From a bacterium (lineage in GTDB: Bacteria > Joyebacterota > Joyebacteria > Joyebacterales > Joyebacteraceae), in assembly GCA_025774545.1 (NCBI GenBank), contig JALGVU010000001.1:28573-92572 (forward strand): a stretch of DNA of 64,000 nt. Direction: 5' to 3'. The notes beneath the pieces are model-generated. The model searched no databases. It was not told where the DNA came from and saw only the letters and a program-made list of their open reading frames with translations. The position numbers were made by a program, and so were the translations under genes. Of this stretch, positions 31,346 to 64,000 are shown piece by piece. Position 1 is the first letter of the stretch. The number at the start of each line of letters is the position of its first letter.

Positions 31346-31348
31346 CGC

Positions 31349-33620: not shown

Positions 33621-33624
33621 GCGC

Positions 33625-42644: not shown

Positions 42645-42821
42645 GCGTCGGTTCAGCCGAGGAGATCCGCGGGAGCCCGGCGAGGAGCCTCCCGTCGGAC
42701 GACGGATCACGCGAGAGGGCCGAGGCCCCATAACGGTGGCACGAGTTATGCTTTAGATCCTCTCGTCGAGCGCGCCCGCAGTGAGCGGGATGCGCCCTCT
42801 TGGTGGATGGGGGACACGGAC

Positions 42822-43565: not shown

Positions 43566-43600
43566 GGACGGCCACCCGGGGTCACCCGAGGGGACGAAGC

Positions 43601-46901: not shown

Positions 46902-46942
46902 GGACGGTAGGATCCGTTCGGCGCGCATCCAGTGAGGGAACG

Positions 46943-47692: not shown

Positions 47693-47803
47693 CCTCCCGA
47701 GACGCCGTGTCGGCCGTCCTGCCGCAGCGGGAGGCGTGTTCGCGAGGCGTGGATGCGCGGCGGCCGTGCTCTAGCCGCCGCGACCTGTTTTCGGGAGATC
47801 CGG

Positions 47804-49393
47804 ATGAACGGGATCGGTGAAACGCTGCACCGGCTCTACGAGCGGTCGGAGGACTACCTCGGACGCTCGTGGCCCGCCTGGTTGGTCGCCATCCTGTTCT
47901 ACGCCGCGGCCTCCAACGTCCTCATGACGCGCGCGAGCTTCAAGACGCCGCTCCACTTCGTCGTCTTCGTGATGGCATTCACGATCCTCGTTCTCACGCT
48001 CATCAAGGTCGAGTGGGCGATTCTCGGGCTCGTTGCCATGATCGCCTTCACCCGTCCTGGCTTCAGTATCGGTCCCATGAGGACCTTCCACGTGAGCGGC
48101 TTCAACGTCGCGCTGGTCGGCGTGTGGATCGTCTACCTGGCTCGCTACTCGATCGACCGCGAGATGGCCTCGCTGGGACCGATCGTCAGGAAGACCGCCG
48201 TCGACAAGATCGCCATCGCCTACGTCTGCCTCGTCACGATCTCGGCGCTTCTCGGAATCAACAAGAACGTCGATCCCGTTCGATTCGGCGACGTCATTTC
48301 GAACGCCGATCCACAGATGAGGGTGCTCCTCTACTACAAAGAGCAGATCCTCTACTTCGCGTGGTTCTATCTGGTCATAACGCTGACGCGCAAGCCAAGA
48401 GATCTGAGACGCCTGGCGGTCGTCTTCGCGATCGGGGGGCTTCTGGTGGCCTTGGTCGGCCTCTACAACCGGTTCACGGGGAGCATGCAGTTGGCGGGGG
48501 CCGACGCGCAGGCCGAGGCCGGAATCGTCGGCGGCCGCTTGAAGTCGGTCGGCTTCCTCGGCGTCGGGCATCCCAACTTCTTCGGCGCGCTGCTCCTCAT
48601 GACGTTGCCCATGTGGTTCTTCATCGTCGACCACGTCAAGGGTTTCTTCCGGAGGCTCTTCTGTAACCTGGCGATCCTCTCGGGTTTCTTGGCGCTCCTC
48701 TTCACGTTCTCGAGGAGCGCCTGGATCGGGATGCTCGCGGGGCTCGCGATGCTCGGTATCACCGACAGGCGCGCTCTCGTGAGGATCGTGTTCTTCCTGA
48801 TGCTCTTCATGGTCGTCGCGCAGGGGCTCTCGCTGACGATCGCCGACATGGGTGTCATCGATCTCATCGGCGGCCGTTTCAGCCAGCTCAGCCGGAGCGG
48901 CTACTCCGAGCGTCCCGAGATCTTCAAGAGCGCCTTCACGCTCATCAGGAGGAACCCCATGACGGGCGTCGGGCCGGGGGCCTATCCGTGGCACGCCGAC
49001 ACGGACTGGCGAGGCGGGGGCCGGCCCGTCCTCCAGGCGCACAACGTCTTCCTGACGATCGCCGCCGAGATCGGTCTTCCGGCGCTCATCGCCTGGGCGG
49101 CGCTCCTGATCGCGATCTTCGTCATGGCGATCAAGAACCTGAGGGTCCTCTCGCGCGTTCCCGGATACGGGTTCATCGCGCAGGGCGCCTACGCGGCGCT
49201 CTTCGCTACGACCGCGCAGAGCTTCTTCGTGCACCTCTTCACGGACAGAAACGTCGGGTACGCCTACTTCACGATGATCGCCATCATCGTCGTCCTCAAT
49301 CGGTTCGTGCGGGAGGGACGATTGACGGCGTCGGGTGAGGTGCTTCCCGAGGGCACTCCTCCGCAGCCGCGTTCGACGGTCTGGGTCGAGTGA
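47804..49393 (+). CDS. wzy: O-antigen polymerase / ligase-like membrane protein (Wzy)
   Basis: About 12 TM helices. Wzy_C motif region (FTFSRSAWIGMLAGL ... GVGPGAY). Visibly lower GC than neighbours. Confidence 0.7.
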   Translation: MNGIGETLHRLYERSEDYLGRSWPAWLVAILFYAAASNVLMTRASFKTPLHFVVFVMAFTILVLTLIKVEWAILGLVAMIAFTRPGFSIGPMRTFHVSGFNVALVGVWIVYLARYSIDREMASLGPIVRKTAVDKIAIAYVCLVTISALLGINKNVDPVRFGDVISNADPQMRVLLYYKEQILYFAWFYLVITLTRKPRDLRRLAVVFAIGGLLVALVGLYNRFTGSMQLAGADAQAEAGIVGGRLKSVGFLGVGHPNFFGALLLMTLPMWFFIVDHVKGFFRRLFCNLAILSGFLALLFTFSRSAWIGMLAGLAMLGITDRRALVRIVFFLMLFMVVAQGLSLTIADMGVIDLIGGRFSQLSRSGYSERPEIFKSAFTLIRRNPMTGVGPGAYPWHADTDWRGGGRPVLQAHNVFLTIAAEIGLPALIAWAALLIAIFVMAIKNLRVLSRVPGYGFIAQGAYAALFATTAQSFFVHLFTDRNVGYAYFTMIAIIVVLNRFVREGRLTASGEVLPEGTPPQPRSTVWVE

Positions 49394-50568
49394 TGGGAGC
49401 CAAACCGCGCGTCCCTGAGGCGCTTCCGAGCGAGATAGCGTTTGTGACCGACGCGCGCGCGTGGGGCGGCGCCGAGGTCTACCTGACGCAGCTCCTCGTC
49501 GGGTTCCGGCGGCTCGGCATCCGCACCAAACTCTACTGCGCCGATCGTCGGGTCATCGACGATTGGGCCGACGATCTCAAGAGCCAGGGCATCGAGGTCG
49601 CCTTCTTCCGGCCGACGAAGGAGTTCAACCCCCTCGGCGTCTTCGTTGCCTGGCGGTGCCTGCGAGGCTACGAGTTCGTTCACGTCAACAAGACGCAGAC
49701 CAGGAACTCCCTCCCGGCGATCATCGGCGCGCGCCTCGCGGGTGCTGCGACCGTCGTCACGACGGAACACCTCGCCATCCCGATCGAGTCCCACTACCCG
49801 TTCGGCAGGGCGATCATCACGACGCTCGCCCGAATCACGAACCGGCTCGTCGATCGCGTGATCGCGGTCTCGGAGCTCTCCCGCACGATGCTGATCGAGA
49901 ACTACTCCCTCGATCCGTCGACGATCGTCACCGTCAGGAACGGAATCGACCTGGCGCGGTTCCGGGGGGAGTTCGACTCGGCTCCTTTGCGCCGCGAGCT
50001 CGGCCTCGCTGAGGACGATCTCGTGGCGATCTTCGTCGGGAGGCTGACGCCCCGGAAGGGGCACGCCTACGCTCTCGAAGCGGCGCCCTCGGTTCTCGCC
50101 GCGATTCCGGGCTTCAAGCTCCTCTTCGTGGGGGACGGGGAGCTCGAGACGGAGCTGCGCCGGCGGGCGCGGACACTCGGGATCGAGGGCTCCGTCGTCT
50201 TCGCCGGCTTCCGCCGCGACATCGCGGAGCTTCTCGCCGCGTCGGATCTCCTGATCCTCCCGTCCGAGAGCGAGTGCCTTCCGCTCACGATCCTGGAGGC
50301 GATGGCCTCGGGACTCCCGGTCGTCGCGGGCGACGTCGGCGGCGTGAGCGAGGAGGTCGAGGACGCCGTGACGGGCCTGCTCGTTCAGCCGCGGGACGCC
50401 GACGGGCTCGCCGAGGCGATCGTCGCGATTCTCGGCGCGCCGGATCACGGCGCAGGTCTGGGCGCCGCCGGCAGGGAGAAGGTGGAGGCCGAATTCAGCC
50501 TCGACGCCTGCATCAGCGGCGTCCTTCGCGTCTACGACGAGCTTCTGAATGAGGTGGCGCGACGATGA
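49390..50568 (+). CDS. Glycosyltransferase family 4
   Basis: GT4 fold (GGAEVY ..., LEAMASGLPVVAGDVGG). Confidence 0.8.
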   Translation: MMGAKPRVPEALPSEIAFVTDARAWGGAEVYLTQLLVGFRRLGIRTKLYCADRRVIDDWADDLKSQGIEVAFFRPTKEFNPLGVFVAWRCLRGYEFVHVNKTQTRNSLPAIIGARLAGAATVVTTEHLAIPIESHYPFGRAIITTLARITNRLVDRVIAVSELSRTMLIENYSLDPSTIVTVRNGIDLARFRGEFDSAPLRRELGLAEDDLVAIFVGRLTPRKGHAYALEAAPSVLAAIPGFKLLFVGDGELETELRRRARTLGIEGSVVFAGFRRDIAELLAASDLLILPSESECLPLTILEAMASGLPVVAGDVGGVSEEVEDAVTGLLVQPRDADGLAEAIVAILGAPDHGAGLGAAGREKVEAEFSLDACISGVLRVYDELLNEVARR

Positions 50569-51809
50569 GCGACACACGGACGCTCAGGATCCTCAGCGTC
50601 AATCAGTGGTTCTACCCGGACAGCTTCGGGGGCATCGAGCGCGTCTCATACGAGACCGCGAGGCGGCTGGCCGCCCGCGGCCACGTGATCGACCTCGTGG
50701 GGGAGAGGCGGAGGGCGGACACGCCCGACGTCGAGGAGCTGTACGGCGTGACGGTGCATCGCTACGGCAGCTGCGAGCAGAGCCGCCGATTCGGCGGCCG
50801 GACGATCGGGGCGCTCTACCGCTCGCGCCCGGTCATCGCGGGCCTCCTCGCCGAGAACCGGTACGACCTCGTGCTGGGGCAGCATCAGCTGCCGATGTAC
50901 GCCTACCTGAGAACTGCCCGCCGCAAGACCGTCCCGGAGGTTCAGATCTTCCATGCTTCGTACTGGCGCGAGCTTCGCCTCGAGGGAGCGGAGCGGAACA
51001 TCGGCAAGCCGCTCGAGACGCTCCTCTACGGGACGCTCGTCAAGCGGGCGGAGGCGGCGGGACTCAGGCGCGCCGACCGCGTCGTCATTCTGTCGGACTT
51101 CTCCAGAGAACAGCTCCTCGCGTATCACCCGTTCGTCGACGGCAAGATCGTCAAGATCGCGGGCGGTGTCGATCTCGAACGCTTCCGCCCCGCCGCCGAT
51201 CGCGCGGCTCTCAGACGCGAGTTGGGTCTCCCGGCGGATCGGCAGATCCTCTTCACCGCCCGCCGACTCGTGCCCCGGATGGGGCTCGAGAACCTGATCG
51301 TGGGGTTCGCGGAGGCGCGCGGCGGCTTCCCGAGCGCTCTTCTCGTCATCGCCGGGCGCGGTCGCCTCGAGGACGACCTCCGAAGGCTCGTGGCCGCTCA
51401 CGGGCTCACGGATGCGGTCTCGTTTGTCGGGTTCGTCCACGACGACGAGCTCGTGAAGCACTACCAGGTGGCCGATCTCTTTGTGCTGCCCTCCCTCGCG
51501 TTCGAGGGGTTCGGCATGGTGACCCTCGAGGCCCTCTCCTGCGGCACGCCGGTGATCGGAACGCCGATCGGGGCGACCCCGGAGCTTCTCCGACCACTCT
51601 CCCCGCAGCTCCTCCTCTCCGGCACGGAACCGCCGGCGATCCGTCGAGGCATCCACATCCTGCTCGAGTGGCTCTCCGACGCGAAGGCGGCGGAAGAGCT
51701 GAGAGCGCGGTGCCGCGCCTACGTCGAGGAGCGGTACGGCTGGGATCGGGCGGTCGACGCGCTCGAGGAGCTGTTCCTCGCGCTCGTCGCGGGCGGAGCA
51801 GGATCGTGA
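50565..51809 (+). CDS. Glycosyltransferase family 4
   Basis: GT4 fold (FGGIERV..., LEALSCGTPVIGT). Confidence 0.8.
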   Translation: MSDTRTLRILSVNQWFYPDSFGGIERVSYETARRLAARGHVIDLVGERRRADTPDVEELYGVTVHRYGSCEQSRRFGGRTIGALYRSRPVIAGLLAENRYDLVLGQHQLPMYAYLRTARRKTVPEVQIFHASYWRELRLEGAERNIGKPLETLLYGTLVKRAEAAGLRRADRVVILSDFSREQLLAYHPFVDGKIVKIAGGVDLERFRPAADRAALRRELGLPADRQILFTARRLVPRMGLENLIVGFAEARGGFPSALLVIAGRGRLEDDLRRLVAAHGLTDAVSFVGFVHDDELVKHYQVADLFVLPSLAFEGFGMVTLEALSCGTPVIGTPIGATPELLRPLSPQLLLSGTEPPAIRRGIHILLEWLSDAKAAEELRARCRAYVEERYGWDRAVDALEELFLALVAGGAGS

Positions 51810-51823: not shown

Positions 51824-54109
51824 ATGCGCTGGTTGATCGCGAGGGCGCGGGCGATGACGCCCGCGGAGCTCACGCTCCGCGGGTCGCGCGCGGCCAGGGA
51901 GGCGGTGCGCCGCCGCTCCCGTGGGCGACGCGGCGAGGCGCTGCCGTCCCTCCGCGATCTCCTCGACCCTCGAACCGTCGACCTCGATGCCGCGACGGCC
52001 GAGACGCTCGTGTCGTCGATCCGTGGCCGCGCGCTCGCGGTCGGGGATCCGGTCGAGACGGAGCGCGCTCTCGGCGCGATCGGCGGTTCTCGGGACGCTG
52101 TCGTCCGGGCGGCGGACGAGGTGCTCGCTGGGGCGATCGCGGCGTTCGGCCACGGGACCCTCGACATCGGGACGTCGCCGGATTGGCTGCGCGACCCGGT
52201 CAGCGGCCGGAGCTGGCCGCTCGTCTTCTGGCCGGACGTCGACTACCGGTTCGACGACTCGGTGGGCGACCCGCGATACGTCTGGGAGGTCAACCGCCAC
52301 CACCACCTCGCCACGCTCGGCAGGGCGTTCCATCTGTCGGGGGAGCCGCGATTTGCGACGGCGGTCTGGTCCCACATCCTGTCATGGATCGACCGGAACC
52401 CGCCGTATCGTGGAATCAACTGGTCAAGCGCACTCGAGATGGCCATCCGCCTGATTTCATGGGGGATGGCGCTCGACCTCGTCGGGTGCGAGGGAGCGCC
52501 CGAGGGTGCGGCCGAGAGGGTGCTCACGAGCGTGTCATTGCAGGCTCACCACCTGTGTGATAATCTTTCCGTTTATGCCTCGTCGAAGAACAACCACCTG
52601 ATTGGCGAAGCAGTGGGGCTTCTGGCCGCCGGGACCCTCTTTCCGGAGCTCCTCAAGGCCGGCGCCTGGGCGAGGAAGGGGCGGACGCTCCTGGAACGCG
52701 AGATCCGGGCACAGGTGAGCCCGGACGGCGTCAGTCGGGAACAGACGTTGCACTACCAGGTCTTCGTGCTCGAGTTCTGCCTGGTTGCGGCGGCGCTCGC
52801 TCGCACATCGGGGCGGCCTCTCTCTCCGGCCTTCTTGACGACTGTCGAAGAGATGGGGGTCTTCCTCGAGCGGACGGCAGGCCTCGCCGGCTCGCCGCCC
52901 TCCGTGGGCGACGAGGACGGCGGCCGCGTCTACGAGCTCGCCGACGAGACCGAACGGCAGGCGGCACGGGCCGCGGCTTGCGCCGCGTTTGCGGCCGGGC
53001 GGCCCCCGCGCGCGCCACTGAGGGAGCGCGATCTCGAGCCGGCCGTGTGGCTCTTCGGGCCTTCCGACGTGGGGGCGTGGCTCTCGTCTCGGACGGGCGA
53101 GCCGCGTGGCAGCGCGACCGAGTCGGCCGCCTACACGCTCGGCGGCTACTTCGTCCCCTCATCGGGAAGTCAGCACGGCGTGATCGACTGCGGTCCCCTC
53201 GGACTCGGGTCGATCGCGGCGCACGGACACGCGGACTGCCTGTCGCTCTCGATCGCGGATCGCGGCAGGTGGCTCGTGGTCGATCCCGGGACCTACTGCT
53301 ACCACCGCGAGCGGGTTCTGCGCGATCACTTCCGTGGCACGGCGGCGCACAACACCGTGTGCGTCGACGGGCGCGATCAGTCGGAGATCCTGGGTCCCTT
53401 TCTGTGGGGACGTCGCGCGCGCCACGAGCAGCTTGCGTGGGCGTCGGGTGACGGCTTCGACTTCTTCGACGGCGCGCACGACGGGTACGAGAGAACGTCC
53501 GGCGTGCGACACCGCCGGAGAGTCGTGTTCGGGAAGAGAGGGTACTGGATCGTCGTCGACAGCCTCGAGGGCACCGGCCGACACACGATCGGGGCGACGT
53601 TTCAGCTCGCGCCGGGCCTCGAACCCACCGCGGACGGCGGGCTCGAGTTCCGGCACGCCGACGGGTTCGGCGTCGCGTTTCGCGCGTGGCTGCCGGCGGG
53701 GCTTCGCATCGACGTTCTCGAAGGGCGGGAAGACCCGCCGGCGGGATGGGTCTCTCCCGCGTTCGGCGTCAAGCTTGCCGCTCCGGCCGTGAGGGCCACG
53801 GGGGAGATCGATCTTCCGGCGACGCTCGTCTTTGCGGTCGTCCCCTTCGAGGGGGAGCCCGAGATCGACGTCGAGTGCCTGACGGGGGCCTGGAGGGACG
53901 GCGCGGTGTTCGAGGCGACCTTCCCGGAGGGGCGAGACCGGTGCTTCCTCGGCCGTCCGCCGGCGTCGCCCGGGACCGGCACCTTCGACGGGGCGTTCGG
54001 GTTCACCGCCCACCGCGGGGCGGAGCGACGGGCGTACGGGTTTGAGATCAGAGACTGGAAGGACGGCGACGCGGCCGTCCCCCACGAGGAGATCCGCTGC
54101 GCGCTCTAG
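51824..54109 (+). CDS. Heparinase II/III-family protein (polysaccharide lyase/epimerase-like fold)
   Basis: N-terminal alpha/alpha toroid region (WEVNRHHHL, NHL) and C-terminal Hepar_II_III beta-sandwich (HGHADCLS). Start codon uncertain: the in-frame GTG at 51806 overlaps the upstream stop, the ATG at 51824 was chosen. The 50549 N-terminal extension of the track ORF was rejected. Confidence 0.65.
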   Translation: MRWLIARARAMTPAELTLRGSRAAREAVRRRSRGRRGEALPSLRDLLDPRTVDLDAATAETLVSSIRGRALAVGDPVETERALGAIGGSRDAVVRAADEVLAGAIAAFGHGTLDIGTSPDWLRDPVSGRSWPLVFWPDVDYRFDDSVGDPRYVWEVNRHHHLATLGRAFHLSGEPRFATAVWSHILSWIDRNPPYRGINWSSALEMAIRLISWGMALDLVGCEGAPEGAAERVLTSVSLQAHHLCDNLSVYASSKNNHLIGEAVGLLAAGTLFPELLKAGAWARKGRTLLEREIRAQVSPDGVSREQTLHYQVFVLEFCLVAAALARTSGRPLSPAFLTTVEEMGVFLERTAGLAGSPPSVGDEDGGRVYELADETERQAARAAACAAFAAGRPPRAPLRERDLEPAVWLFGPSDVGAWLSSRTGEPRGSATESAAYTLGGYFVPSSGSQHGVIDCGPLGLGSIAAHGHADCLSLSIADRGRWLVVDPGTYCYHRERVLRDHFRGTAAHNTVCVDGRDQSEILGPFLWGRRARHEQLAWASGDGFDFFDGAHDGYERTSGVRHRRRVVFGKRGYWIVVDSLEGTGRHTIGATFQLAPGLEPTADGGLEFRHADGFGVAFRAWLPAGLRIDVLEGREDPPAGWVSPAFGVKLAAPAVRATGEIDLPATLVFAVVPFEGEPEIDVECLTGAWRDGAVFEATFPEGRDRCFLGRPPASPGTGTFDGAFGFTAHRGAERRAYGFEIRDWKDGDAAVPHEEIRCAL

Positions 54110-54143
54110 CGGACCCACGCGAGAGAGGAGCACGAGAAGTCAC

Positions 54144-55469
54144 ATGCGAGTCAGCGTTCTCGGCCTAGGCTACGTGGGGTGCGTATCGGCGGCGTGTCTG
54201 TCCAATCTCGGCCACACCGTCGTGGGCCTCGACGTCAACCCGAAGAAGCTCGAGCCGATCAACGACGGCAAGAGCCCGATCGTGGAGCCCGGCCTTCAGG
54301 AGCTGGTGGGGAGGGGCGTGGCGGAGGGGAGGCTCTCGGCGACCGACGACTACGAGACCGCCGTGACGGACACGGAGATCTCGCTGGTCTGCGTCGGCAC
54401 GCCGTCGATGGAGGACGGGCGCCCGAATCTGAAGTACACGAAGCGCGTGTGTCAGCAGCTCGCCGACGTGTTCGCGAAGAAGGACGAGTTCCACACGGTC
54501 ATCTTCCGCAGCACGATCCCCCCCGGCACGGTGGAGAACGAGCTGATCCCGGTTCTCGAGCAGGGATCGGGCAAGAAGGAGGGGGAGGGGTTCGGCGTCT
54601 GCTTCAACCCGGAGTTCCTGCGCGAGGCGTCCGCCGTTCAGGACTTCCATCACCCGCCGAAGATCGTGATCGGGGAGACGAGTCCCGGGAGCCGCGCGGG
54701 CGACGCGCTCGTGGAGCTGTACGCCTCGATCGAGGCTCCGCTCGTCAGAACCAACCTCAAGGTCGCGGAGATGGTCAAGTACGCCGACAACTGCTTCCAC
54801 GCGATCAAGGTCTGTTTCGCGAACGAGATCGGGAACCTCTGCAAGGGGCTCGGCGTCGACGACAGCCACAAGGTCATGGAGATCTTCTGCCTCGACACGC
54901 AGCTCAATCTTTCGCCCTACTATCTGAAGCCGGGGTTCGCGTTCGGCGGCTCGTGTCTTCCGAAGGACCTCAGGGCCATCGTGGGGATGAGCCGCGATCT
55001 CGGGATCGAGTGCCCCGTGCTCAGGGCGGTGACTCCGTCCAACAGGCTCCAGATCGAGCGGGCGATCGACTCGGTCCGCAACACGGGGAAGAGGAGGGTC
55101 GGCGTGCTCGGCATGAGTTTCAAGGCGGGGACGGACGATCTGAGGGAGAGCCCGATCGTCGAGGTCGTCGGGACACTCATCGGCAAGGGCTACGAGCTGT
55201 CGATCTACGACAGGAACATCTCGTGGGAGGCGCTCCTGGGATCCAACCTCGGGTTCCTCGAGCACGAGCTCCCGTACGCTCAGCGGCTCAAGGCACAGAC
55301 GGTCGACGAGGTCATCGAGCGGTCGGACGTGCTGGTCGTGGCGAACTCCTCCGATGAGTTCAAGCACGTCCCGGAGAAGATGCGCGACGACCAGATCCTG
55401 ATCGACCTCGTCCGGATCGTCGACGATCCCTCGAAGGTGAACGGGAAGTACGTCGGGATCGCCTGGTAA
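54144..55469 (+). CDS. algD: GDP-mannose 6-dehydrogenase (AlgD-like nucleotide-sugar dehydrogenase)
   Basis: N-terminus MRVSVLGLGYVGCVSAACLSNLGHTVVGLDV...GKSPIVEPGL is collinear with AlgD. Catalytic Cys region GFAFGGSCLPKD. SD GAGAGGAG. Confidence 0.75.
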   Translation: MRVSVLGLGYVGCVSAACLSNLGHTVVGLDVNPKKLEPINDGKSPIVEPGLQELVGRGVAEGRLSATDDYETAVTDTEISLVCVGTPSMEDGRPNLKYTKRVCQQLADVFAKKDEFHTVIFRSTIPPGTVENELIPVLEQGSGKKEGEGFGVCFNPEFLREASAVQDFHHPPKIVIGETSPGSRAGDALVELYASIEAPLVRTNLKVAEMVKYADNCFHAIKVCFANEIGNLCKGLGVDDSHKVMEIFCLDTQLNLSPYYLKPGFAFGGSCLPKDLRAIVGMSRDLGIECPVLRAVTPSNRLQIERAIDSVRNTGKRRVGVLGMSFKAGTDDLRESPIVEVVGTLIGKGYELSIYDRNISWEALLGSNLGFLEHELPYAQRLKAQTVDEVIERSDVLVVANSSDEFKHVPEKMRDDQILIDLVRIVDDPSKVNGKYVGIAW

Positions 55470-55515
55470 CGCGCGAGAGCCCCTGACGTTCAGGGGCGCG
55501 CATCGGAGAGTCCCT

Positions 55516-56742
55516 TTGAAGGGCAAGAGGCACATCGTCATCATCGTCGAGAACCTGCCGGTCCCGTTCGATCGACGCGTCTGGCTCGAGTCGACGACGC
55601 TCAAGGCCGCCGGATACGACGTCAGCGTGATCTGTCCGCAGGGCAGCGGCGGGGCCTACAGCGAGCCGCACGAGGAGATCGACGGGATACACATCTATCG
55701 GTACAAGCACCCTCCGCCCACGACGACGAAGATCTCCTACGCGTGGGAGTTCCCGTACTGCTGGTTCAACAGCCTCAGGCTGGCGCTCGGGATTGCGAGG
55801 AGGGAGGGCTTTGACGCGATTCACGCGTGCAACCCGCCGGACACGTTCTTCCTGATCGGTGTCATCTTCAAGCTCCTCAGACGCTCGAAGTTCGTCTACG
55901 ACCAGCACGATCTCTGCCCCGAGCTCTACCTGTCCCGGTTCGGCGGGAGGAGGGCGCTCTACTTCTGGCTCCTGCGGTTGCTCGAGTGGGTCACCTACCG
56001 CTCGGCCGACATGGTGCTCGCGACGAACGAGTCGTACAAGGGACACGCCGTCGAGACGGGGAAGGTCCCGGCCGACGACGTCTACGTCGTCAGGAGCGGT
56101 CCACGCCTCACGCACTTCAACCCGGTGCCTCCCGAGCCCGAGCTCAAGAGGGGACGGAAGAACCTCGTGTGCTACCTCGGCGTGATGGCGCCGCAGGACG
56201 GCCTCGACTACCTGCTCCGCGCGGCGAGGCACGTCATCGACGTCGTCAACCGCCGCGACGTGCACTTCGTCCTGATCGGGAGCGGGGACTCGTTCGAAGC
56301 GGTCAAGAGCCTGAGGGACGACCTCGGCCTGGCCGACTACGTTGAGATGACCGGCCGCATCCCCGACGCGGACGTGCAGCGCTACCTCTCCACGGCGGAC
56401 CTCTGTGTCTGCCCGGATCCGAGGAACCCCCTGAACGACGTCTCGACCATGAACAAGGTCCTCGAGTACATGACCTTCTCCAAGGCCATGGTCTCGTTCG
56501 ATCTGATCGAGAGCCGGTTCTCGGCGCGGGACGGAGCGCTCTACGCGAGCCCGAACGACGAGATCGAGTTCGGCGAACGGATCATCCAGCTCCTGGACGA
56601 CGACGAGCTTCGGGAGGAGATGGGGGCGCGGAACCGGAAGCGGATCGAGGACGAGCTCTCGTGGGAGCACACGAGCAAGGAGCTCCTCAGGGCCTACGGC
56701 GTGCTGTTCGGAGGGAGCGAGGGAGCGGAAGGGAAGGGATGA
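55516..56742 (+). CDS. Glycosyltransferase family 4
   Basis: TTG start. GT4 fold (HACNPPDTF ... E-rich C-terminal motif). Confidence 0.75.
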   Translation: MKGKRHIVIIVENLPVPFDRRVWLESTTLKAAGYDVSVICPQGSGGAYSEPHEEIDGIHIYRYKHPPPTTTKISYAWEFPYCWFNSLRLALGIARREGFDAIHACNPPDTFFLIGVIFKLLRRSKFVYDQHDLCPELYLSRFGGRRALYFWLLRLLEWVTYRSADMVLATNESYKGHAVETGKVPADDVYVVRSGPRLTHFNPVPPEPELKRGRKNLVCYLGVMAPQDGLDYLLRAARHVIDVVNRRDVHFVLIGSGDSFEAVKSLRDDLGLADYVEMTGRIPDADVQRYLSTADLCVCPDPRNPLNDVSTMNKVLEYMTFSKAMVSFDLIESRFSARDGALYASPNDEIEFGERIIQLLDDDELREEMGARNRKRIEDELSWEHTSKELLRAYGVLFGGSEGAEGKG

Positions 56743-57722
56743 TGGGTCCCCTGGGGTGCGTCGTCGCGGTCACGTACCGGTGCGACGCCAGATGCACGAT
56801 GTGCGACATCTGGAAGCAGGAGGTCGACCGGGAGACGGAGCTTGCGGCTTCCGACTACGCCTGGCTTCCCGCGTCGCTCCGATCGATCAACGTCAGCGGG
56901 GGCGAGCCGTTTCTCCGAGACGATCTCGTCGAGATCGTCTCGGTGATGCGGCGGGCGTGCCCGAAGGCGAGGATCGTCATCTCGACGAACGGGCTGGCGC
57001 CCTCGCGGATCGAGCGCATGGTCGGCGAGATGGGGGACGTCGCGGTCAGGGTGTCGGTCGACGCTGCGGGGTCCCTGCACGATGAGATCCGGGGCGTCGA
57101 CGGCGCGTACGAGCGCGCGATCGAGACCGCTCTCAGGCTCCGGGCCGCGGGCGTCAGCGACCTCGGGCTCGCCGCGACCTCAACGGAGGGGAACCCCGGC
57201 GAGCTCAGGGGAGTGAAGGAGGTCGCCGACGGTTTCGGCATGGAGTTCGCCGCGAGCGCTGCCCACAGCTCGCCGATCTTCTTCGGCGAGCACGAGAGCG
57301 AGCGGCCCCACTCGGACCGTGCGGTCGCGGAGATCGCCGGGATCATGAGGGAGTGGCTCAGGTCGCCGAGGCCGCGTGACTGGGCGAAGGCATACTACAT
57401 GCGCGGCCTCATCGACTACGTGCAGGGCAAGCCCAGGCGCCTCGCGTGCCGGGCCGGTCTGGACCTCTTCTTCCTCGATCCGAAGGGTCTCGTCTACCCC
57501 TGCAACATCTCGGGGACCCTCATGGGGAACGTGAGGGACGGGAGCTTCGAGGACTTGAGGCGGGCGACCCGAACGGAAGTGCGCCGCAAGGTGGCGGAGT
57601 GCCCGCACCAGTGCTGGATGATCTGCACGGTCTCGCCTCCCATGTGGAGGAGGCCCTTGGGTCCTCTCGCGTGGATGGCCGGAGCCAAGCTTCTGAAGCT
57701 TGACAGCCGCGCGGGTCAATGA
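56739..57722 (+). CDS. Radical SAM domain protein (CxxxCxxC; SPASM/twitch-like C-terminal Cys)
   Basis: YRCDARCTMCD motif 10 aa from the start and C-terminal CPHQCWMIC. ATG overlaps the upstream stop. Confidence 0.7.
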   Translation: MMGPLGCVVAVTYRCDARCTMCDIWKQEVDRETELAASDYAWLPASLRSINVSGGEPFLRDDLVEIVSVMRRACPKARIVISTNGLAPSRIERMVGEMGDVAVRVSVDAAGSLHDEIRGVDGAYERAIETALRLRAAGVSDLGLAATSTEGNPGELRGVKEVADGFGMEFAASAAHSSPIFFGEHESERPHSDRAVAEIAGIMREWLRSPRPRDWAKAYYMRGLIDYVQGKPRRLACRAGLDLFFLDPKGLVYPCNISGTLMGNVRDGSFEDLRRATRTEVRRKVAECPHQCWMICTVSPPMWRRPLGPLAWMAGAKLLKLDSRAGQ

Positions 57723-57756
57723 GAGTCTCATGATCTCAAGGCGAACGGACGGACCG

Positions 57757-58977
57757 ATGAAGGTGCTCGCCGCGAACAAGTATTACTTCGTCAAGGGCGG
57801 GGCCGAGCGCTACTTCTTCGAGCTCGCGCGCATTCTCGAGGAGCGCGGGCACAGCGTTGTTCCGTTCGCGATGCGGCACGAGCAGAACGAGGAGTCGCCG
57901 CACGCCGATCTCTTCGTCTCGCACGAGTCGTTCGACGGCGGTGCGGGGCCACTCGACCGGGTGAGGGCGGCGGCACGCGTCATCTACTCGCTCGAGGCGC
58001 GCAGGAAGATCGCCGCGCTCGTCGACCGGACGAGGCCGGACGTCGCGCACCTGCACAACATCGCGCATCAGCTCTCGCCGTCGATCCTGGTCGTGCTCCG
58101 GGCGAAGGGCGTCCCGGTCGTTCAGACGTTGCACGATTACAAGCTCGTGTGCCCGAACTACCAGATGTTCGTTCACGGGAAGACGTGCGAGCGCTGCCGC
58201 CGCTGGCGCTACTATCGGGCGTGCGTCCACCGCTGCATGCGCGGCTCGCTCGCGCAGAGCGCGCTCGTCTGTGCCGAGGCGTACATCCACAAGCTCCTCG
58301 GCACCTACTCGAAGAACGTCGACCTCTTCATCGCGCCGAGCCAGCAGCTCAGGGAACGCATGGTGAGGCACGGGGTCGACCCCGACCAGATCGTGCACCT
58401 GCCGTACTCGATCGCGCTCGACGGGTACGAGCCGCGGTACGATTCCGACGGGTACGCGATCTACGTCGGCCGCCTGTCGATCGGGAAGGGGCTCGAGACG
58501 CTCCTCTCGGCGCTCGGGAGGGCGCGAGACGTCCGCTTCAAGGTCATCGGGAGCGGGCCCTTGGCGGACGACCTCGAGGCGCGCGCCGCGCGCGAGGGGC
58601 TCACGAACGTCGAGTTCGTCGGGTACCGGACCGGGGCCGATCTGAAATCGATCGTCGCCGGTGCGCGATTCGTCGTCGTTCCGTCGGAGTGCTTCGAGAA
58701 CTCGCCGCTGACGGTCTACGAGGCGTTCGCGATGGGGAAACCCGTCGTCGGGTCTACGATCGGCGGCATACCCGAGCTCGTCCCGGAAGGAGAGGCGGGT
58801 CTCCTCTTCGAGCCCGGCGACGACGAGGCGTTGGCAGCGAGGCTCGTCGAACTCTGGAACGATCCGGACCGCTCGCGGGAGATGGGCCGGGCGGGACGGA
58901 AGAGGGTCGAGAGCGAATACGGACCGGAGCGGCACTACGAGAGGATCCGGTCCATCTACGAGAGGGTCACTCGGTGA
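57757..58977 (+). CDS. Glycosyltransferase family 4
   Basis: MKVLAANKYYF ... GGIPELV motifs. Start chosen at the ATG nearest the conserved N-terminus. Confidence 0.75.
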   Translation: MKVLAANKYYFVKGGAERYFFELARILEERGHSVVPFAMRHEQNEESPHADLFVSHESFDGGAGPLDRVRAAARVIYSLEARRKIAALVDRTRPDVAHLHNIAHQLSPSILVVLRAKGVPVVQTLHDYKLVCPNYQMFVHGKTCERCRRWRYYRACVHRCMRGSLAQSALVCAEAYIHKLLGTYSKNVDLFIAPSQQLRERMVRHGVDPDQIVHLPYSIALDGYEPRYDSDGYAIYVGRLSIGKGLETLLSALGRARDVRFKVIGSGPLADDLEARAAREGLTNVEFVGYRTGADLKSIVAGARFVVVPSECFENSPLTVYEAFAMGKPVVGSTIGGIPELVPEGEAGLLFEPGDDEALAARLVELWNDPDRSREMGRAGRKRVESEYGPERHYERIRSIYERVTR

Positions 58978-60071
58978 AGATCGCGATGCTCGGACAGAAG
59001 GGAATCCCCGCCACGTACGGTGGCATCGAGCGCCACGTGGAGGAGCTGGCGACGCGGCTGGTCGAGCGCGGGCACGAGGTCACCGTCTACTGCCGGCCGT
59101 ACTACACGAAGCAGACGGGCGAGTATCGCGGTGTGAAGCTGGCTCACGTCCCGAGCGTGCGCACGAAGCACCTCGACACGGCCACGCACTGCGCGTTCGC
59201 GATCCCGCACATCATGTTGCAGGACTTCGACGTCGTTCACTTCCACGCGCTCGGTCCCTCGCTCTTCGCGAGCCTCCCGCGCTTCAGAGGGATGAAGACC
59301 GTCGTCACGGTCCACGGGCTCGATTGGCAGAGGGAGAAGTGGGGCGTGGTGGCGACGTGGATCCTCAAGCGGTGCGAGTACACGGCGATCGTCTATCCGA
59401 GCAGGACCATCGTCGTCTCGAAAGCGCTCCGCGAGTACTTCCACGAGCAGCGCGAGGTGACCGTCACGTACATTCCGAACGGGACCGTCCTGCCGAACGT
59501 GCGGGAGGCGTCGAAGATTCGGGAGATGGGTATCGAGCCCGGGAGCTACATCCTTTTCGTCGGACGGCTCGTTCCCGAGAAGGGGTGTCACTACTTGCTC
59601 GACGCCTACCGGAAGGTCGACACGGACGCGGAGCTGATCATCGCCGGCGGCACGAGCTTCTCGAGCGACTACGTCGACAGGCTGCACCGGGCGGGCGGTG
59701 AGCGCACGCGCTTCCTGGGATACGTCTACGGCGACGTGCTCGACGAGCTGTACTCGAACGCGAGGATCTTCGTGCTTCCGTCCGACATCGAGGGGCTGCC
59801 GATAGCGCTTCTCGAGGCGATGAGCTTCGGAAACTGCTGTCTGACGAGCGACATCCCGGAGAACCTCGAGGTCATCGGTGACTGCGGCGTCACGTTCAAG
59901 AAGAGCGACCCCGACGACATGGCGGCGAAGCTCCAGCAGCTCCTCGCCGTGCCCGAGAGATGCCGCGCCATGGGCGACCGCGCCAGGCGTCACGTCCTCG
60001 AGACGTACGACTGGGACGGCGTGACCCTTCACACCGAGGCGATCTACTACACCATGTTGAGGGGCTTCTAG
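58974..60071 (+). CDS. Glycosyltransferase family 4
   Basis: GTG overlapping the upstream stop. GT4 fold (GGIERHV ..., LEAMSFGNCCL). Confidence 0.75.
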   Translation: MKIAMLGQKGIPATYGGIERHVEELATRLVERGHEVTVYCRPYYTKQTGEYRGVKLAHVPSVRTKHLDTATHCAFAIPHIMLQDFDVVHFHALGPSLFASLPRFRGMKTVVTVHGLDWQREKWGVVATWILKRCEYTAIVYPSRTIVVSKALREYFHEQREVTVTYIPNGTVLPNVREASKIREMGIEPGSYILFVGRLVPEKGCHYLLDAYRKVDTDAELIIAGGTSFSSDYVDRLHRAGGERTRFLGYVYGDVLDELYSNARIFVLPSDIEGLPIALLEAMSFGNCCLTSDIPENLEVIGDCGVTFKKSDPDDMAAKLQQLLAVPERCRAMGDRARRHVLETYDWDGVTLHTEAIYYTMLRGF

Positions 60072-60149
60072 GGGGCGTGGCGCTCGAGGATCGAGAGCCC
60101 CGGGGTGCCCGGAGGCGTCGCGCGATCCGCCCGAGTCGAGGGAGGAGGT

Positions 60150-61046
60150 TTGAGACCCTTGGACATCGCGTGCCTGCTCGAGGAGGAACGCGCGACGGTC
60201 GAGGAGGCGCTCGATCGCTTCCTCCCCGCCGAGGGGGAGTATCCCGCGCGCATCCACGAGGCCATCCGCTACTCGACGCTCGCCGGTGGAAAGAGGCTCC
60301 GGCCGATCATCGCGCTCGTGGCGACGCGGGCCCTGGGCCACGACGCCGGCAGGATCATCAAGTCGGCGTGCGCTCTCGAGTACGTCCACTCGTGCTCCCT
60401 CGTGCTCGACGATCTTCCCTCGATGGACGACGCGGAGTACCGGCGTGGCCGCCCCACGACGCACCGCGTCTTCGGCGTTGCGACCGGCATCCTCGCGGCC
60501 GACGCCCTTCTGATGCACGCCTTCAAGCTCGTGGCGGACAACGGAGTGGAATCGGACGCGGACGGTCCCCGGATCGCGGGAGCGATTCGGGAGCTCGCGA
60601 CGGCCGTGGGATCGTTCGGCATGGTCGGCGGGCAGCACGTCGACCTCGAGGTCGCGGGCCGGGGAACGATCGACCCCGAGACGCTCGAGTACATCCTGAG
60701 CAGGAAGACCGGCGCCCTCTTCGTGGTCTCCGCTCGTATCGGGGGCGTGCTTCTGGGCGCGTCGGAGGAGGACCTCGGGTCCCTCTCGATCTACGCACGC
60801 AATCTGGGCCTCGCGTACCAGATCGTCGACGACCTGCTCGACGTCGAGGGAGATCCCGACGTGATCGGCAAGGACGTCGGGAAGGACGCGGGCAAGAACA
60901 CGTTTGTGACCGTGCACGGTGTCGAGGCGGCGAGGGAGACGGCGAGGGCGCTCGTTCACGAGGCCAAGAGCGCGCTCGATCGCCTCGACGCCACGACCGC
61001 GCAGCTCCGCGAAATCGCGGACTACTGCCTGACGAGATCGCTCTGA
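60150..61046 (+). CDS. Polyprenyl diphosphate synthase (IspA/GGPPS family)
   Basis: First DDxxD-type motif LVLDDLPSMDD and second motif QIVDDLLD. TTG start preceded by GAGGGAGGAGG. Confidence 0.8.
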   Translation: MRPLDIACLLEEERATVEEALDRFLPAEGEYPARIHEAIRYSTLAGGKRLRPIIALVATRALGHDAGRIIKSACALEYVHSCSLVLDDLPSMDDAEYRRGRPTTHRVFGVATGILAADALLMHAFKLVADNGVESDADGPRIAGAIRELATAVGSFGMVGGQHVDLEVAGRGTIDPETLEYILSRKTGALFVVSARIGGVLLGASEEDLGSLSIYARNLGLAYQIVDDLLDVEGDPDVIGKDVGKDAGKNTFVTVHGVEAARETARALVHEAKSALDRLDATTAQLREIADYCLTRSL

Positions 61047-61065
61047 GAGAAGGCCCGGAGGTGTC

Positions 61066-62124
61066 GTGCGGCACGCCGTGATACTCGCGGGAGGATGGGG
61101 CGAACGGCTCTGGCCGATGAGCACGAGGGCGCGCCCGAAGCAGCTCCTCGCGCTCGCGGGGGAGGAGTCGCTCATCCGAGCGACCCTCGCGCGGGTGGCG
61201 CCGCTGGTCGACGGCGAGAGCACCCTCGTGATGACGGGGGAGAGGCTCGCCGGCCGCGTGGCGGAGGAGCTTCCGGACGTGCCCCGCGAGCGGGTGATCG
61301 GCGAGCCCGTGGGCAGGAACACGGCGCCGGCCATCGCGCTCGCGGCGCGCCTGCTCGTGCGGCGCGATCCCGAGGCCGTCATGGTCGTGCTTCCCGCCGA
61401 CCACGTCATCGCCGACGGCGCGGCCTTCAGGGACGTGCTGTCGCTCGCGTTCGAGGCCGCCCTGGCCGAGGGCGCGCTCGTGACGCTCGGGATCCGTCCC
61501 GGGCGGCCCGAGACCGAGTACGGGTACATCAAGGCAGGTTCGCCCGCCCGAACGGCGGGCGTGCTCGCAGTCGAGCGGTTCGTGGAGAAGCCCGACCGGG
61601 AGACGGCCGCGCGCTACCTCGCGGACGGGACGTACCTCTGGAACAGCGGCATCTTCATCTGGCGCGCCGACCGTTTCCTCGAGGAGGTCGGTAGGCTTCT
61701 CCCTGCGGTCGCTCGCGCCCTCGTCGGGGTCGAGGCCGGGCTCTCGTCGGCGAGCTTCGAGGGCGAGATGGCGAGGTACTACGAGGCGGTCCCGAGCATC
61801 TCGGTCGACTACGGGATCATGGAGAAGTCGGACGACGTCGTGGTCGTTCCGTGCGACGTCGGGTGGGACGACGTGGGCGCCTGGTCGGCGCTCGAGCGCG
61901 TGTGGACCGTCGATGCCGACGGAAACGCCGTGCGCGGCGAGTCCGTTGTTGTCGACTCGACCGGCTGCGTCGTCTACTCCGAGGCGGGCGTCACGGCCGT
62001 CGTCGGACTCAGGGACATCGTCGTTGCGAGGACGTCCGAGGGGACGCTCGTCGTACCGAAGGAGCGGGCCCGCGACGTTCGGAAGATCGTGGAGGAGTTG
62101 AAGCGCAGGGGGACGATCGGGTGA
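61066..62124 (+). CDS. manC: Mannose-1-phosphate guanylyltransferase (ManC/GMPP)
   Basis: N-terminus AVILAGGWGERLWP and a nucleotidyltransferase fold. 352 aa. Confidence 0.8.
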   Translation: MRHAVILAGGWGERLWPMSTRARPKQLLALAGEESLIRATLARVAPLVDGESTLVMTGERLAGRVAEELPDVPRERVIGEPVGRNTAPAIALAARLLVRRDPEAVMVVLPADHVIADGAAFRDVLSLAFEAALAEGALVTLGIRPGRPETEYGYIKAGSPARTAGVLAVERFVEKPDRETAARYLADGTYLWNSGIFIWRADRFLEEVGRLLPAVARALVGVEAGLSSASFEGEMARYYEAVPSISVDYGIMEKSDDVVVVPCDVGWDDVGAWSALERVWTVDADGNAVRGESVVVDSTGCVVYSEAGVTAVVGLRDIVVARTSEGTLVVPKERARDVRKIVEELKRRGTIG

Positions 62125-62339
62125 GGCGCCCAAGCTGCTGTCCGGGAGCGCGCGGCCGAAGACACCGCGCCCCCTCGGCCCCGCCGACCGTCCTGCGCCC
62201 AAGATGAGACGTGTCAAGATGGTCTCGCGGATCGACCGCCTGCGCCGTCTTGACTCCGATGGTCGATTCTGCTAGTCATTGGGACTCCGCGAGCGTGCGA
62301 GTCGGACGCTTGGTCTCAAGGGACTCACCAGGAGAAGGC

Positions 62340-63359
62340 ATGCCGCAGCTCAGGAAGGATCCGGTTCTCGGTCGCTGGGTCATCATCTCGACGGAGCGAG
62401 GGAAGCGACCGACGGACTTCGCGCACGCCCCGGAGGAGAAGAAGGGCGGCTTCTGCCCGTTCGACTACGGCAACGAGGACAAGACGCCGCCTGAGGTCAT
62501 GGCCTACCGCGAGAACGGGAGCAGCCCGGACAGCCCGGGATGGCAGGTCAGGGTCGTGCCCAACAAGTTCCCCGCGCTCGCGATCGAGGGCGAGGTCGAC
62601 CGCGCGGGCGAGGGAATGTACGACAAGATGAACGGGATCGGGGCGCACGAGGTGATCATCGAGACACCGGATCACGACGTCAGCTTCGCGGATCTGCCGC
62701 TTCCGCACATCGCTCTCGTGATCAAGGCCGCGCAGCAGCGGATGATCGATCTCCAGGGAGACACGCGCTTCAGGTACATCCAGCTGTTCCGGAATCGGGG
62801 ACAGGCCGCGGGCGCCTCACTCGAGCATCCGCACTCGCAGCTCATCGCGCTCCCCATTCTCCCGAAGCGGCTGACGGAGGAGCTCGGCGGCAGCAAGAAG
62901 TACTACGGCTACAAGGAGCGCTGCGTCTTCTGCGACATCATCGCGCAGGAGACGTGGACGAGGACGAGGGTCGTGTGCGAGAACGAGCAGTTCCTGACGA
63001 TCGTCCCGTTCGCGGCGCGGTTCCCCTTCGAGACCTGGATCCTGCCGAAGAAGCACTTCTCGTCGTTCGAGGTGATGGGTGACGACATGCGGCTCGCCTT
63101 CGCGCAGATCCTCAAGGAATCGCTCACGAGGATCAACATCGCGCTCGACGACGCGCCGTACAACTTCATCCTCCACACGTCACCGACCGGCGAGCGCGAC
63201 CTCAAGTACTACCACTGGCACATGGAGATCATGCCGAAGCTCACGAAGGTCGCGGGATTCGAGTGGGGATCCGGTTTCTACATCAACCCGACGCCGCCCG
63301 AGGAGGCGGCGAAGTACCTGCGGGACGTCGAGATCCCGCGAGAGGAGACGTGCGCTTGA
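62340..63359 (+). CDS. GalT-like HIT-family hexose-1-phosphate nucleotidyltransferase (galactose-1-P uridylyltransferase / ADP-glucose phosphorylase-like)
   Basis: CPFDYG Zn motif and HPHSQLIALP (HxHxQ) active site. SD AGGAGAAGG. Confidence 0.7.
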   Translation: MPQLRKDPVLGRWVIISTERGKRPTDFAHAPEEKKGGFCPFDYGNEDKTPPEVMAYRENGSSPDSPGWQVRVVPNKFPALAIEGEVDRAGEGMYDKMNGIGAHEVIIETPDHDVSFADLPLPHIALVIKAAQQRMIDLQGDTRFRYIQLFRNRGQAAGASLEHPHSQLIALPILPKRLTEELGGSKKYYGYKERCVFCDIIAQETWTRTRVVCENEQFLTIVPFAARFPFETWILPKKHFSSFEVMGDDMRLAFAQILKESLTRINIALDDAPYNFILHTSPTGERDLKYYHWHMEIMPKLTKVAGFEWGSGFYINPTPPEEAAKYLRDVEIPREETCA

Positions 63360-64000
63360 GAATCCTGCTTGCATCAGCCGAGGTGGCGCCGTTCGCGAGG
63401 GTCGGAGGACTCTCCGACGTCGTCGGCGCGCTCGCGAAGGACATGGCGGCGGCCGGACACGAGGTCTCGGTCTTCCTTCCCAGATACGCAGCGATCGACG
63501 GGGAGAAGTTCGGGATCGAGAGGGTCGCCGAGATCGGGTCGCTGGCCGTCCGCATGGGCGATCGCGACGAGACGGTCGAGATCCATCGTTCGGAGATGCC
63601 CGGGGGGGCCGGCGTCTCCGTCTACTACGTGTGGCACGAGGGCTACTTCGGCCGCGACGGAATCTACGTCGACCCGGAGACGGGGGAGGGTTACCCCGAT
63701 GAGGTCTCTCGCTACGCCCTCTTCTCTCGCGCCCTCATACTCGCGGCGCGTGAGCTCAAGCTCAGGCCCGACGTGATCCACCTGAACGATCACCACACGG
63801 CGCTCGCCGCCGCCTATCTCCGCGAGTACCACAGGGACGACCCCGATCTCGGGACGCCCGGGATCGTCTTCAGCATCCACAACCTCGGTTATCAGGGCAT
63901 CTTCGACAAGGGTCTGCTTCCCGAACTCGGCATCCCCGCTGAGCTCGCCGCTCCCGGAGGCCCGCTCGAGTTCCACGGGCAGGCAAGCGCCATGAAGCTC
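63356..64000 (+). CDS. glgA: Glycogen synthase GlgA, N-terminal part; continues past window end
   Basis: TTG start overlaps the upstream stop. N-terminus LRILLASAEVAPFARVGGLSDVVGAL (KxGGL-type motif) and HLNDHHTAL. Confidence 0.8.
   Translation, partial: MRILLASAEVAPFARVGGLSDVVGALAKDMAAAGHEVSVFLPRYAAIDGEKFGIERVAEIGSLAVRMGDRDETVEIHRSEMPGGAGVSVYYVWHEGYFGRDGIYVDPETGEGYPDEVSRYALFSRALILAARELKLRPDVIHLNDHHTALAAAYLREYHRDDPDLGTPGIVFSIHNLGYQGIFDKGLLPELGIPAELAAPGGPLEFHGQASAMKL

Follow-up and report, generated by a model that had tools for sequence, protein, structure and literature searches.

We analysed a stretch of 64,000 nucleotides (the window) from contig JALGVU010000001.1 of GenBank assembly GCA_025774545.1, a bacterium of the Joyebacterota. 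From 40.1 to 62.1 kb it carries an exopolysaccharide (EPS) locus of the type that combines a Wzy polymerase, a polysaccharide co-polymerase (PCP) and an outer-membrane polysaccharide export (OPX) protein; the sugar-supply and assembly half of this locus lies at 51824–62124. Our main subject is a run of three plus-strand genes in that half, encoding a heparinase-III-like protein that resembles family PL12 (51824–54109; a candidate uronate C5 epimerase or lyase), an AlgD-type GDP-mannose 6-dehydrogenase (54144–55469) and a family 4 glycosyltransferase (GT4 c, 55516–56742). The EPS locus is itself of a known kind; its unusual element is the module, recurrent across phyla, in which a heparinase-fold protein with no signal peptide is coupled to a GT4 and an AlgD-type dehydrogenase.

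Since the G+C content of the window is about 68%, reading frames could be chosen by third-position GC in combination with a listing of open reading frames (ORFs). All genes across 26–64 kb lie on the plus strand. The genes named in the original prediction, which had been made from the letters alone, were all recovered on that strand and at the same positions by ORF listing, third-position GC and domain searches. That prediction had counted six GT4 genes; the EPS block has five, starting at 49390, 50565, 55516, 57700 and 58974, and two further GT4 genes belong to a separate lipopolysaccharide (LPS)-core block at 31–34 kb.

The heparinase-like protein is 761 aa long (762 aa as first described). 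Its start codon is secure, because the in-frame stretch upstream overlaps the GT4 gene before it and is wrong in its codon-position composition; the database copy, P0001, begins at Met11. It matches Hepar_II_III_N with 87 bits and Hepar_II_III_C with 159 bits, and gives a weak match of 23 bits to Alginate_lyase (PF05426). The curated HepC equivalog models are not reached (81 and 61 bits, for cut-offs of 700 and 600 respectively). By sequence, the closest solved proteins are the PL12 heparinases III, with an E-value of 1e-20 for the single sequence and 6e-49 for a 28-sequence profile, and identity to the solved lyases (heparinase III of PL12, and the alginate lyases of PL17, PL39 and PL15) is about 16–21%. 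An AlphaFold (AF2) model built on the alignment reached a pLDDT of 89.8 and a pTM of 0.92, and a Foldseek search with it returned PL12 first, followed by alginate lyases of PL17, PL39 and PL15; a significant match was also obtained to human dermatan sulfate epimerase 1 (DS-epi1). The model shares with PL12 and DS-epi1 the fold of a toroid plus a beta-sandwich. We classify the protein, from these sequence and fold matches, as a distant relative of heparinase III.

Its catalytic residues, whose possible loss had been raised as a concern, are kept. HMMER alignments pair N257/H258, Y311 and H467 with N216/H217, Y270 and H400 of the heparinase III chain, which a 24-residue mature-chain offset turns into Asn240/His241, Tyr294 and His424; these we take to be the published active-site residues of heparinase III. 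Over 89 sequences, N256, N257, H258, Y311, H467, H469, D471, D487, Y493 and H509 are each at least 97% conserved. The resemblance to heparinase III and to the PL17, PL39 and PL15 enzymes covers both the (alpha/alpha)-toroid with beta-sandwich and the aligned Asn–His, Tyr and His residues. Compared with heparinase III, however, the window protein has an HGHAD motif at the catalytic His, a conserved basic N-terminal helix and no signal peptide, and its gene sits inside biosynthetic clusters beside a sugar-nucleotide dehydrogenase, rather than in catabolic loci as do those of the known lyases.

Human DS-epi1 (PDB 6HZN) has an N-terminal domain of type DUF4962 where the window protein has Hepar_II_III_N, and no sequence similarity was detectable between the two. 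DS-epi1 and heparinase II share catalytic residues and a metal site, and a lyase can become an epimerase through small changes to its active site (PMC8006597). In DS-epi1 the metal site is formed by His452, Glu470 and Asn481, and catalysis involves a His/Tyr/His set with a second Tyr (PMC8006597). By sequence pattern alone, H258, Y311, H467 and Y493, along with the spacing of H469 and D487, fit DS-epi1 and heparinase II, in which the H-x-H...acid...Tyr arrangement would correspond to the catalytic His, the His and the acidic residue that bind the metal, and the second Tyr (PMC8006597); the same residues are present in lyases.

The protein appears to be cytoplasmic. Neither a signal peptide nor a membrane anchor was found in any of 28 aligned sequences (the window protein and 27 homologues): within the first 70 aa, the maximum 15-residue Kyte–Doolittle mean does not exceed 1.53 in any of them, and is mostly below 1. 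The basic N-terminal helix is conserved instead, with R7, M11, E15 and R19 present in at least 97% of sequences. Although this predicted location is the one we favour, non-classical export may also be compatible with the missing signal peptide. In Janthinobacterium (locus L017, 2620–4890) and Massilia (L055, 2783–5119), a second heparinase-fold gene encodes a protein of about 760–780 aa with DUF4962 and Hepar_II_III_C domains that bears a classic Sec signal peptide; a few genes separate this exported form from the PL12-like gene without signal peptide that lies downstream of it (9851–11857 in L017). DUF4962 is also the type of N-terminal domain that dermatan sulfate epimerase has.

The dehydrogenase that follows, with the three domains of the UDPG_MGDP_dh architecture (PF03721, PF00984 and PF03720, all above cut-off), is of the GDP-mannose rather than the UDP-glucose type, as had been supposed: it scores 465 bits over its full length against AlgD (1MFZ), as compared to 268 bits for the best UDP-glucose dehydrogenase (3VTF) and, in the search of solved structures, 146 bits for the UDP-ManNAcA dehydrogenase 4R16. 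Its identity to Pseudomonas aeruginosa AlgD is 48.8% over the full length (BLASTP), and C271, in a GGSCLPKD motif, aligns with the catalytic Cys268 of AlgD. A group-entropy analysis of the dehydrogenase superfamily found that His217, Arg122 and Ala263 mark GDP-mannose dehydrogenases (GMDs); His217 contacts the mannose 2''-OH, and its position is taken by Leu in UDP-glucose and by Arg in UDP-ManNAc dehydrogenases (PMC4794789). The window protein has all three of these GMD-specific residues, as H219, R122 and A266; two less conserved GMD positions are changed, Leu126 to Pro and Cys213 to Asp.

The guanylyltransferase for mannose-1-phosphate, ManC (61066–62124), matches NTP_transferase with 147 bits and ManC_GMP_beta-helix with 66 bits, and scores 335 bits against GMP_PMI over the GMP part; it has no PMI domain. 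Taken together, ManC and the AlgD-type dehydrogenase give a predicted route from mannose-1-phosphate to GDP-mannuronate, which, with both genes in the same conserved cluster, is the product to be expected. The earlier suggestion that these two genes imply a mannuronate-containing polymer is borne out to the extent that the dehydrogenase groups with AlgD and carries the GMD-specific residues. This two-step supply is that of the alginate precursor pathway of P. aeruginosa (AlgA/ManC and AlgD), down to the substrate-contact residues, but in that pathway ManC has a PMI domain and the precursor is passed to Alg8, Alg44, AlgK, AlgE, AlgX, AlgG and AlgL, whereas assembly here would be by a priming transferase, five GT4 enzymes, a Wzy_C protein, a PCP with BY-kinase, and Wza. 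No domain of an Alg8/Alg44 synthase, nor of AlgK, AlgE, AlgX, AlgG or AlgL, was found in the window, and a canonical alginate operon was rejected on that basis.

To examine linkage of these genes, we fetched 80 genome and 8 metagenome loci (cited below by L-number) and counted the 81 that have at least 2 kb of downstream sequence, calling a dehydrogenase AlgD-type if it had at least 40% identity to AlgD over at least 70% of the AlgD length. Such a dehydrogenase is present within 10 kb in 42 of the 81 loci, and is the next gene downstream in 35. An orthologue of GT4 c occurs in 39 loci, with 45–56% identity, or 73–77% in the Eisenbacteria-type loci; nearly all of these 39 also have the dehydrogenase, with the GT4 usually directly after it. 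The linked loci span Eisenbacteria, Latescibacteria-type contigs, Chloroflexota, Omnitrophota, Caldithrix, Armatimonadota, and beta- and gammaproteobacteria, cultured Janthinobacterium among them. In a rough neighbour-joining tree, linked and unlinked heparinase-like proteins fall largely into separate clades; no alignment columns were found that separate the two sets. The heparinase-like family is widespread and without export signals, and part of it is tightly linked to the dehydrogenase and the GT4 that follows. We found no description in the literature of a biosynthetic or cytoplasmic heparinase-fold protein, of its link to a GDP-mannose dehydrogenase, or of the three-gene module, although coverage was incomplete and this is weak evidence; a search by the Pfam family name gave only work on degradative lyases.

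A metagenome-assembled genome of Accumulibacter sp. (L069, 9878–14479) has the three genes for heparinase-like protein, AlgD-type dehydrogenase and GT4. In two Latescibacteria-type contigs (L087, 1–5470, and L088, 1–5452), a DegT aminotransferase gene lies 5′ of the heparinase-like gene, and genes for a GFO_IDH_MocA oxidoreductase and a 296-aa protein without Pfam match stand between the latter and the AlgD-type dehydrogenase; this arrangement suggests a pathway variant for an amino-uronic acid.

The nearest homologues of the heparinase-like and radical S-adenosylmethionine (SAM) proteins come from metagenome-assembled genomes of Candidatus Eisenbacteria. Relatives in which the heparinase-like protein has 47–62% identity show the same gene order, running from Wza to Wzy, then GT4 genes, heparinase-like protein, dehydrogenase, GT4, radical SAM enzyme, two GT4 genes, prenyl synthase (not always present), ManC, GalT and GlgA; that the order is kept despite this divergence indicates that selection maintains the arrangement. 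In all relatives, GalT and the GlgA-like gene come after ManC.

The radical SAM enzyme (56739–57722; Radical_SAM 55 bits, SPASM 21 bits) directly follows GT4 c. It is 327 aa long with a CX3CX2C motif and Radical_SAM, SPASM and Fer4_12 domains. Among 23 sequences, C22 is invariant, as are C237, C255, C288, C292 and C296, while C15 and C19 are at least 90% conserved; the auxiliary cysteines are spaced C237-x12-G-x4-C255...C288-x3-C292-x3-C296, as in a twitch or partial SPASM C-terminal domain. An AF2 model (pLDDT 88.7) has SkfB, BlsE, CteB, MoaA and anSME as its best fold matches, and the epimerase EpeE is also among the matches. The gene is restricted to Eisenbacteria and Latescibacteria-type loci, where it always comes after the GT4 that succeeds the dehydrogenase. 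Of the two roles first proposed for this enzyme, C-methylation of a sugar is unlikely, given the size of the protein and its twitch/SPASM type, and class-B (cobalamin-dependent) methylation was rejected since it has no cobalamin-binding domain. We suggest that it carries out an additional, lineage-specific reaction on one of the sugars in the repeat unit, for which radical oxidation, epimerisation or decarboxylation is plausible. The cytosylglucuronate decarboxylase BlsE, like SkfB, has the same size and fold, CX3CX2C motif and auxiliary cysteines, at about 18% identity; we treat the resemblance to BlsE as a lead and not as evidence.

The prenyl synthase gene (60105–61046) encodes a short-chain trans-prenyl diphosphate synthase of FPP/GGPP type (polyprenyl_synt 177 bits), which scores 292 bits against FPPsyn, over the cut-off of 275, and 282 bits against CrtE, under the cut-off of that model. 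Its first aspartate-rich motif (FARM) is DDLPSMDD, of the bacterial DDxxxxD form, with Cys at position −5; a DDxxD motif is also present. Its product could be C15 or C20, given DDxxxxD and this Cys. The idea that it makes a dedicated lipid carrier is not supported, as the enzyme is of the trans type and short-chain rather than a cis-prenyltransferase, and its presence varies between relatives: it is missing at this position in L001 and in the more distant L085, L087 and L088. We rejected an identity as undecaprenyl diphosphate (carrier) synthase because the protein does not have a cis-prenyltransferase fold and its best model is FPP synthase. It is probably a housekeeping gene outside the core cluster.

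GalT, the galactose-1-phosphate uridylyltransferase (62211–63359), matches GalP_UDP_transf and GalP_UDP_tr_C, and galT_1 with 133 bits (cut-off 102); its true start is probably Met44, at 62340. The start of a GlgA-like glycogen/starch synthase (63356–64000), with 66% identity to the post-GalT gene of L001, runs off the window. GalT and GlgA, of general sugar-nucleotide and glycogen metabolism respectively, look like housekeeping neighbours, as does the prenyl synthase.

The other half of the EPS locus begins with the priming enzyme, a small polyprenyl-phosphate hexose-1-phosphate transferase (40086–40778; Bac_transf 226 bits, TIGR03025 EPS_sugtrans 298 bits for a cut-off of 295.6). After it come a PMT_2/GT-C-like integral membrane protein of 543 aa (41013–42644; PMT_2 38 bits), the Wza/OPX outer-membrane export protein (42807–43565; Poly_export and SLBB), an EpsF-like Wzz/PCP co-polymerase (43523–44962; Wzz 25 bits, EpsF and pepcterm_ChnLen below cut-off), an ExeA-like AAA ATPase with a C-terminal SPOR domain (44979–46901; AAA_22 and SPOR, with 274 bits against TIGR03015 pepcterm_ATPase for a cut-off of 324.5), a BY-kinase, the tyrosine autokinase partner of the PCP (46883–47692; pepcterm_TyrKin 124 bits, eps_fam 107 bits), and a Wzy_C-domain membrane protein, the candidate polymerase (47753–49393; Wzy_C 73 bits). 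GT4 a (49390–50568; Glycos_transf_1 141 bits) and GT4 b (50565–51809; stp3 105 bits, with other GT4 models) lead up to the heparinase-like gene. Beyond GT4 c, which was recognised by its GT4 domains, and the radical SAM gene lie GT4 d (57700–58977; Glycos_transf_1 108 bits) and GT4 e, with a DUF1972-type N-terminus (58974–60071; Glycos_transf_1 112 bits, DUF1972 36 bits).

The original assignment to a Wzx/Wzy-type pathway is supported in that the cluster is of Wzy/PCP/OPX type, its priming transferase, Wzy_C protein, PCP with BY-kinase and OPX exporter all having been detected, and so is the remark that a Wzx flippase is missing: no MOP/Wzx-type protein is present among the genes called in the 64 kb, nor was a MOP-family Wzx seen in L001 and L002, two syntenic loci of 22 kb. 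Wzx may be encoded elsewhere in the genome. The PMT_2-like protein keeps its position after the priming enzyme in L001, L002, L005, L007 and L009, and has a weak, sub-cut-off match (37 bits) to Agl23, an archaeal flippase-associated protein; in a cluster without Wzx, its candidate roles are periplasmic glycosyl transfer and assistance in flipping. The ATPase is a relative of the XrtA/PEP-CTERM-associated ATPase, fused to the peptidoglycan-binding SPOR domain; that of L002 is short and has no SPOR domain, and L085, L087 and L088 have a separate small SPOR protein downstream of ManC. The ATPase, BY-kinase, PCP, Wza and several GT4 score best against pepcterm or stp models, as in XrtA/PEP-CTERM EPS loci, but none of these scores reaches its curated cut-off and the window has neither an exosortase nor an EpsI gene, such that we rejected a confirmed XrtA/PEP-CTERM locus. 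One distant homologue of the heparinase-like protein adjoins EpsH/EpsI.

The remainder of the window is largely concerned with the envelope. Genes for TamB, BamA, Skp, LpxD, LpxA, LpxB, DUF374, KdtA and LpxK lie in 1050–16852 and 26124–37836, and the LPS-core block has three GT9 heptosyltransferases, MsbA, the two GT4 noted above, a WaaL-like Wzy_C protein and a GmhB-like HAD phosphatase. The diderm envelope gene set looks complete, and it suggests LPS with a heptose-containing core in this Eisenbacteria-like organism. A GSU2086-family protein (38812–39780; 372 bits, above cut-off) stands between the LPS-core and EPS blocks. Genes for NAD synthesis are also present. A fused Memo–AMMECR1 protein followed by a radical SAM protein (19481–22295) forms an AmmeMemoRadiSam set unrelated to the EPS cluster, and the sole sizeable minus-strand gene (23547–25919) encodes a protein of 789 aa whose central spermidine synthase domain has long unannotated regions on either side.

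From these genes we propose the following course of events. The priming transferase and the five GT4 enzymes would build a lipid-linked repeat unit, to which GT4 c, as candidate mannuronosyltransferase, would transfer mannuronate from GDP-mannuronate. The heparinase-like protein would work on that mannuronate at the cytoplasmic face, its Asn–His pair neutralising the carboxylate and its Tyr/His abstracting the C5 proton; the enolate so formed would either lose its O4 substituent by beta-elimination, as in a lyase, or be re-protonated at C5 from the other face, as in an epimerase. The outcome we favour is C5 epimerisation of D-mannuronate to L-guluronate, comparable to the action of DS-epi1 with the same fold. 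DS-epi1 demonstrates that the fold is capable of epimerisation; it acts on glucuronate in a polymer, as compared to mannuronate on a lipid-linked intermediate in our proposal. We prefer this role as a cytoplasmic C5 epimerase of mannuronate over that of a lyase because of the location of the protein, its close link to the supply of precursor and the exported paralogue that coexists with it, and hold it tentatively, at a little short of an even chance. A wider claim, that the cytoplasmic heparinase-III-like family comprises unrecognised bacterial uronate C5 epimerases which act on lipid-linked repeat units before export, is more speculative, and we would call it possible but rather doubtful.

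The same conversion of D-mannuronate to L-guluronate is known from the mannuronan C5 epimerases AlgG and AlgE, but these are right-handed beta-helix proteins, unrelated to the heparinase-like protein, that act outside the cytoplasm on finished polymer. The window has a single beta-helix protein, a 337-aa right-handed one with a signal peptide MRLSLVAILIGLTAATAGA (22410–23423). As a candidate AlgG-like epimerase it was rejected, having no sequence match to a solved structure and lying 29 kb from the cluster.

Several points weigh against epimerisation of mannuronate. The choice of epimerase over lyase is drawn only from localisation and gene context, and the catalytic residues do not discriminate, because they are common to the lyases and the epimerase; every closest solved relative is a lyase. 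Mannuronate transfer by GT4 c is purely an inference from gene order. About half of the loci of the family have no uronate-forming dehydrogenase within 10 kb, and its substrate may therefore extend beyond mannuronate. Finally, it could be the radical SAM enzyme that modifies C5.

The strongest alternative is a true polysaccharide lyase, AlgL-like in that it would use beta-elimination to trim or clear either the mannuronate-containing polymer or lipid-linked intermediates that have stalled, for the purpose of quality control, chain-length control or carrier recycling. EPS operons often include a degradative enzyme, AlgL, PslG and BcsZ being examples, and the heparinase-like protein keeps a complete lyase-type residue set, matches Alginate_lyase, if weakly, and has only lyases (PL12, PL17, PL39, PL15 and PL21) as its close solved relatives. 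Yet the known operon-encoded degradative enzymes act outside the cytoplasm, whereas none of the 28 sequences has a signal peptide or anchor; the polymer of a Wzy-type pathway arises in the periplasm; and the HepC equivalog score is far below cut-off. Moreover, in the Janthinobacterium and Massilia clusters the role of exported lyase is already filled, since the separate DUF4962 paralogue has a signal peptide, and, with exported and non-exported heparinase-fold proteins coexisting, the latter is unlikely to be just the lyase of the cluster. We consider a lyase possible, but less probable than an epimerase. The original prediction had offered “a lyase or editing enzyme”, which was the right pair of options; of the two we prefer editing, on account of the missing signal peptide and the separate exported paralogue in two clusters.

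Less probable again, and in our view unlikely, is that C5 of the mannuronate is epimerised or decarboxylated in a radical reaction by the radical SAM enzyme, with the heparinase-like protein acting on another substrate or as a non-catalytic scaffold. The radical SAM gene does occur only in dehydrogenase-bearing loci (10 of 10), the epimerase EpeE is among its fold matches, and BlsE, a radical SAM decarboxylase acting on a glucuronate moiety, is the second-best solved match and the best of equal size (TM 0.66/0.66, with a sequence E-value of 7e-6). The likeness to BlsE is nonetheless at the level of fold, no better than that to peptide maturases such as SkfB, and the near-invariant catalytic-type residues of the heparinase-like family argue that it is an active enzyme. 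As the radical SAM gene is missing from all dehydrogenase-linked loci other than those of the Eisenbacteria and Latescibacteria-type groups, it cannot explain the wider module. That the dehydrogenase is not specific for GDP-mannose, the polymer instead holding another uronic acid such as glucuronate or ManNAcA, is very improbable and by its sequence largely refuted: while in NCBIfam only the general NDP-sugar dehydrogenase model is above cut-off, and the best named matches are UDP-glucose dehydrogenase equivalogs far below theirs, the full-length AlgD match (465 against 268 bits), the equivalents of His217, Arg122 and Ala263, and the presence of ManC in the same conserved cluster all contradict it.

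GDP-mannuronate is usually discussed solely for alginate; here it would feed a Wzy-type heteropolysaccharide, in a candidate phylum without cultured members. Because cultured Janthinobacterium strains carry the module, the function of the heparinase-like protein is open to direct testing. Should it prove to be a lyase, the presence of a cytoplasmic lyase within a Wzy-type cluster would itself need explaining. If instead it is an epimerase, it would represent a new enzymatic route to guluronate-type sugars, with a lyase fold recruited for bacterial biosynthesis, and the family, if it shares this activity, would be the equivalent of dermatan sulfate epimerase in prokaryotic biosynthesis. Such an activity would explain guluronate-type residues in non-alginate heteropolysaccharides of Wzy or exosortase type. 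Alginate-like exopolymers have been reported from granular sludge, to which the Accumulibacter module may be relevant, and this activity could also hint at a gene basis for the “alginate-like” uronic exopolymers of environmental and wastewater bacteria, such as Accumulibacter.

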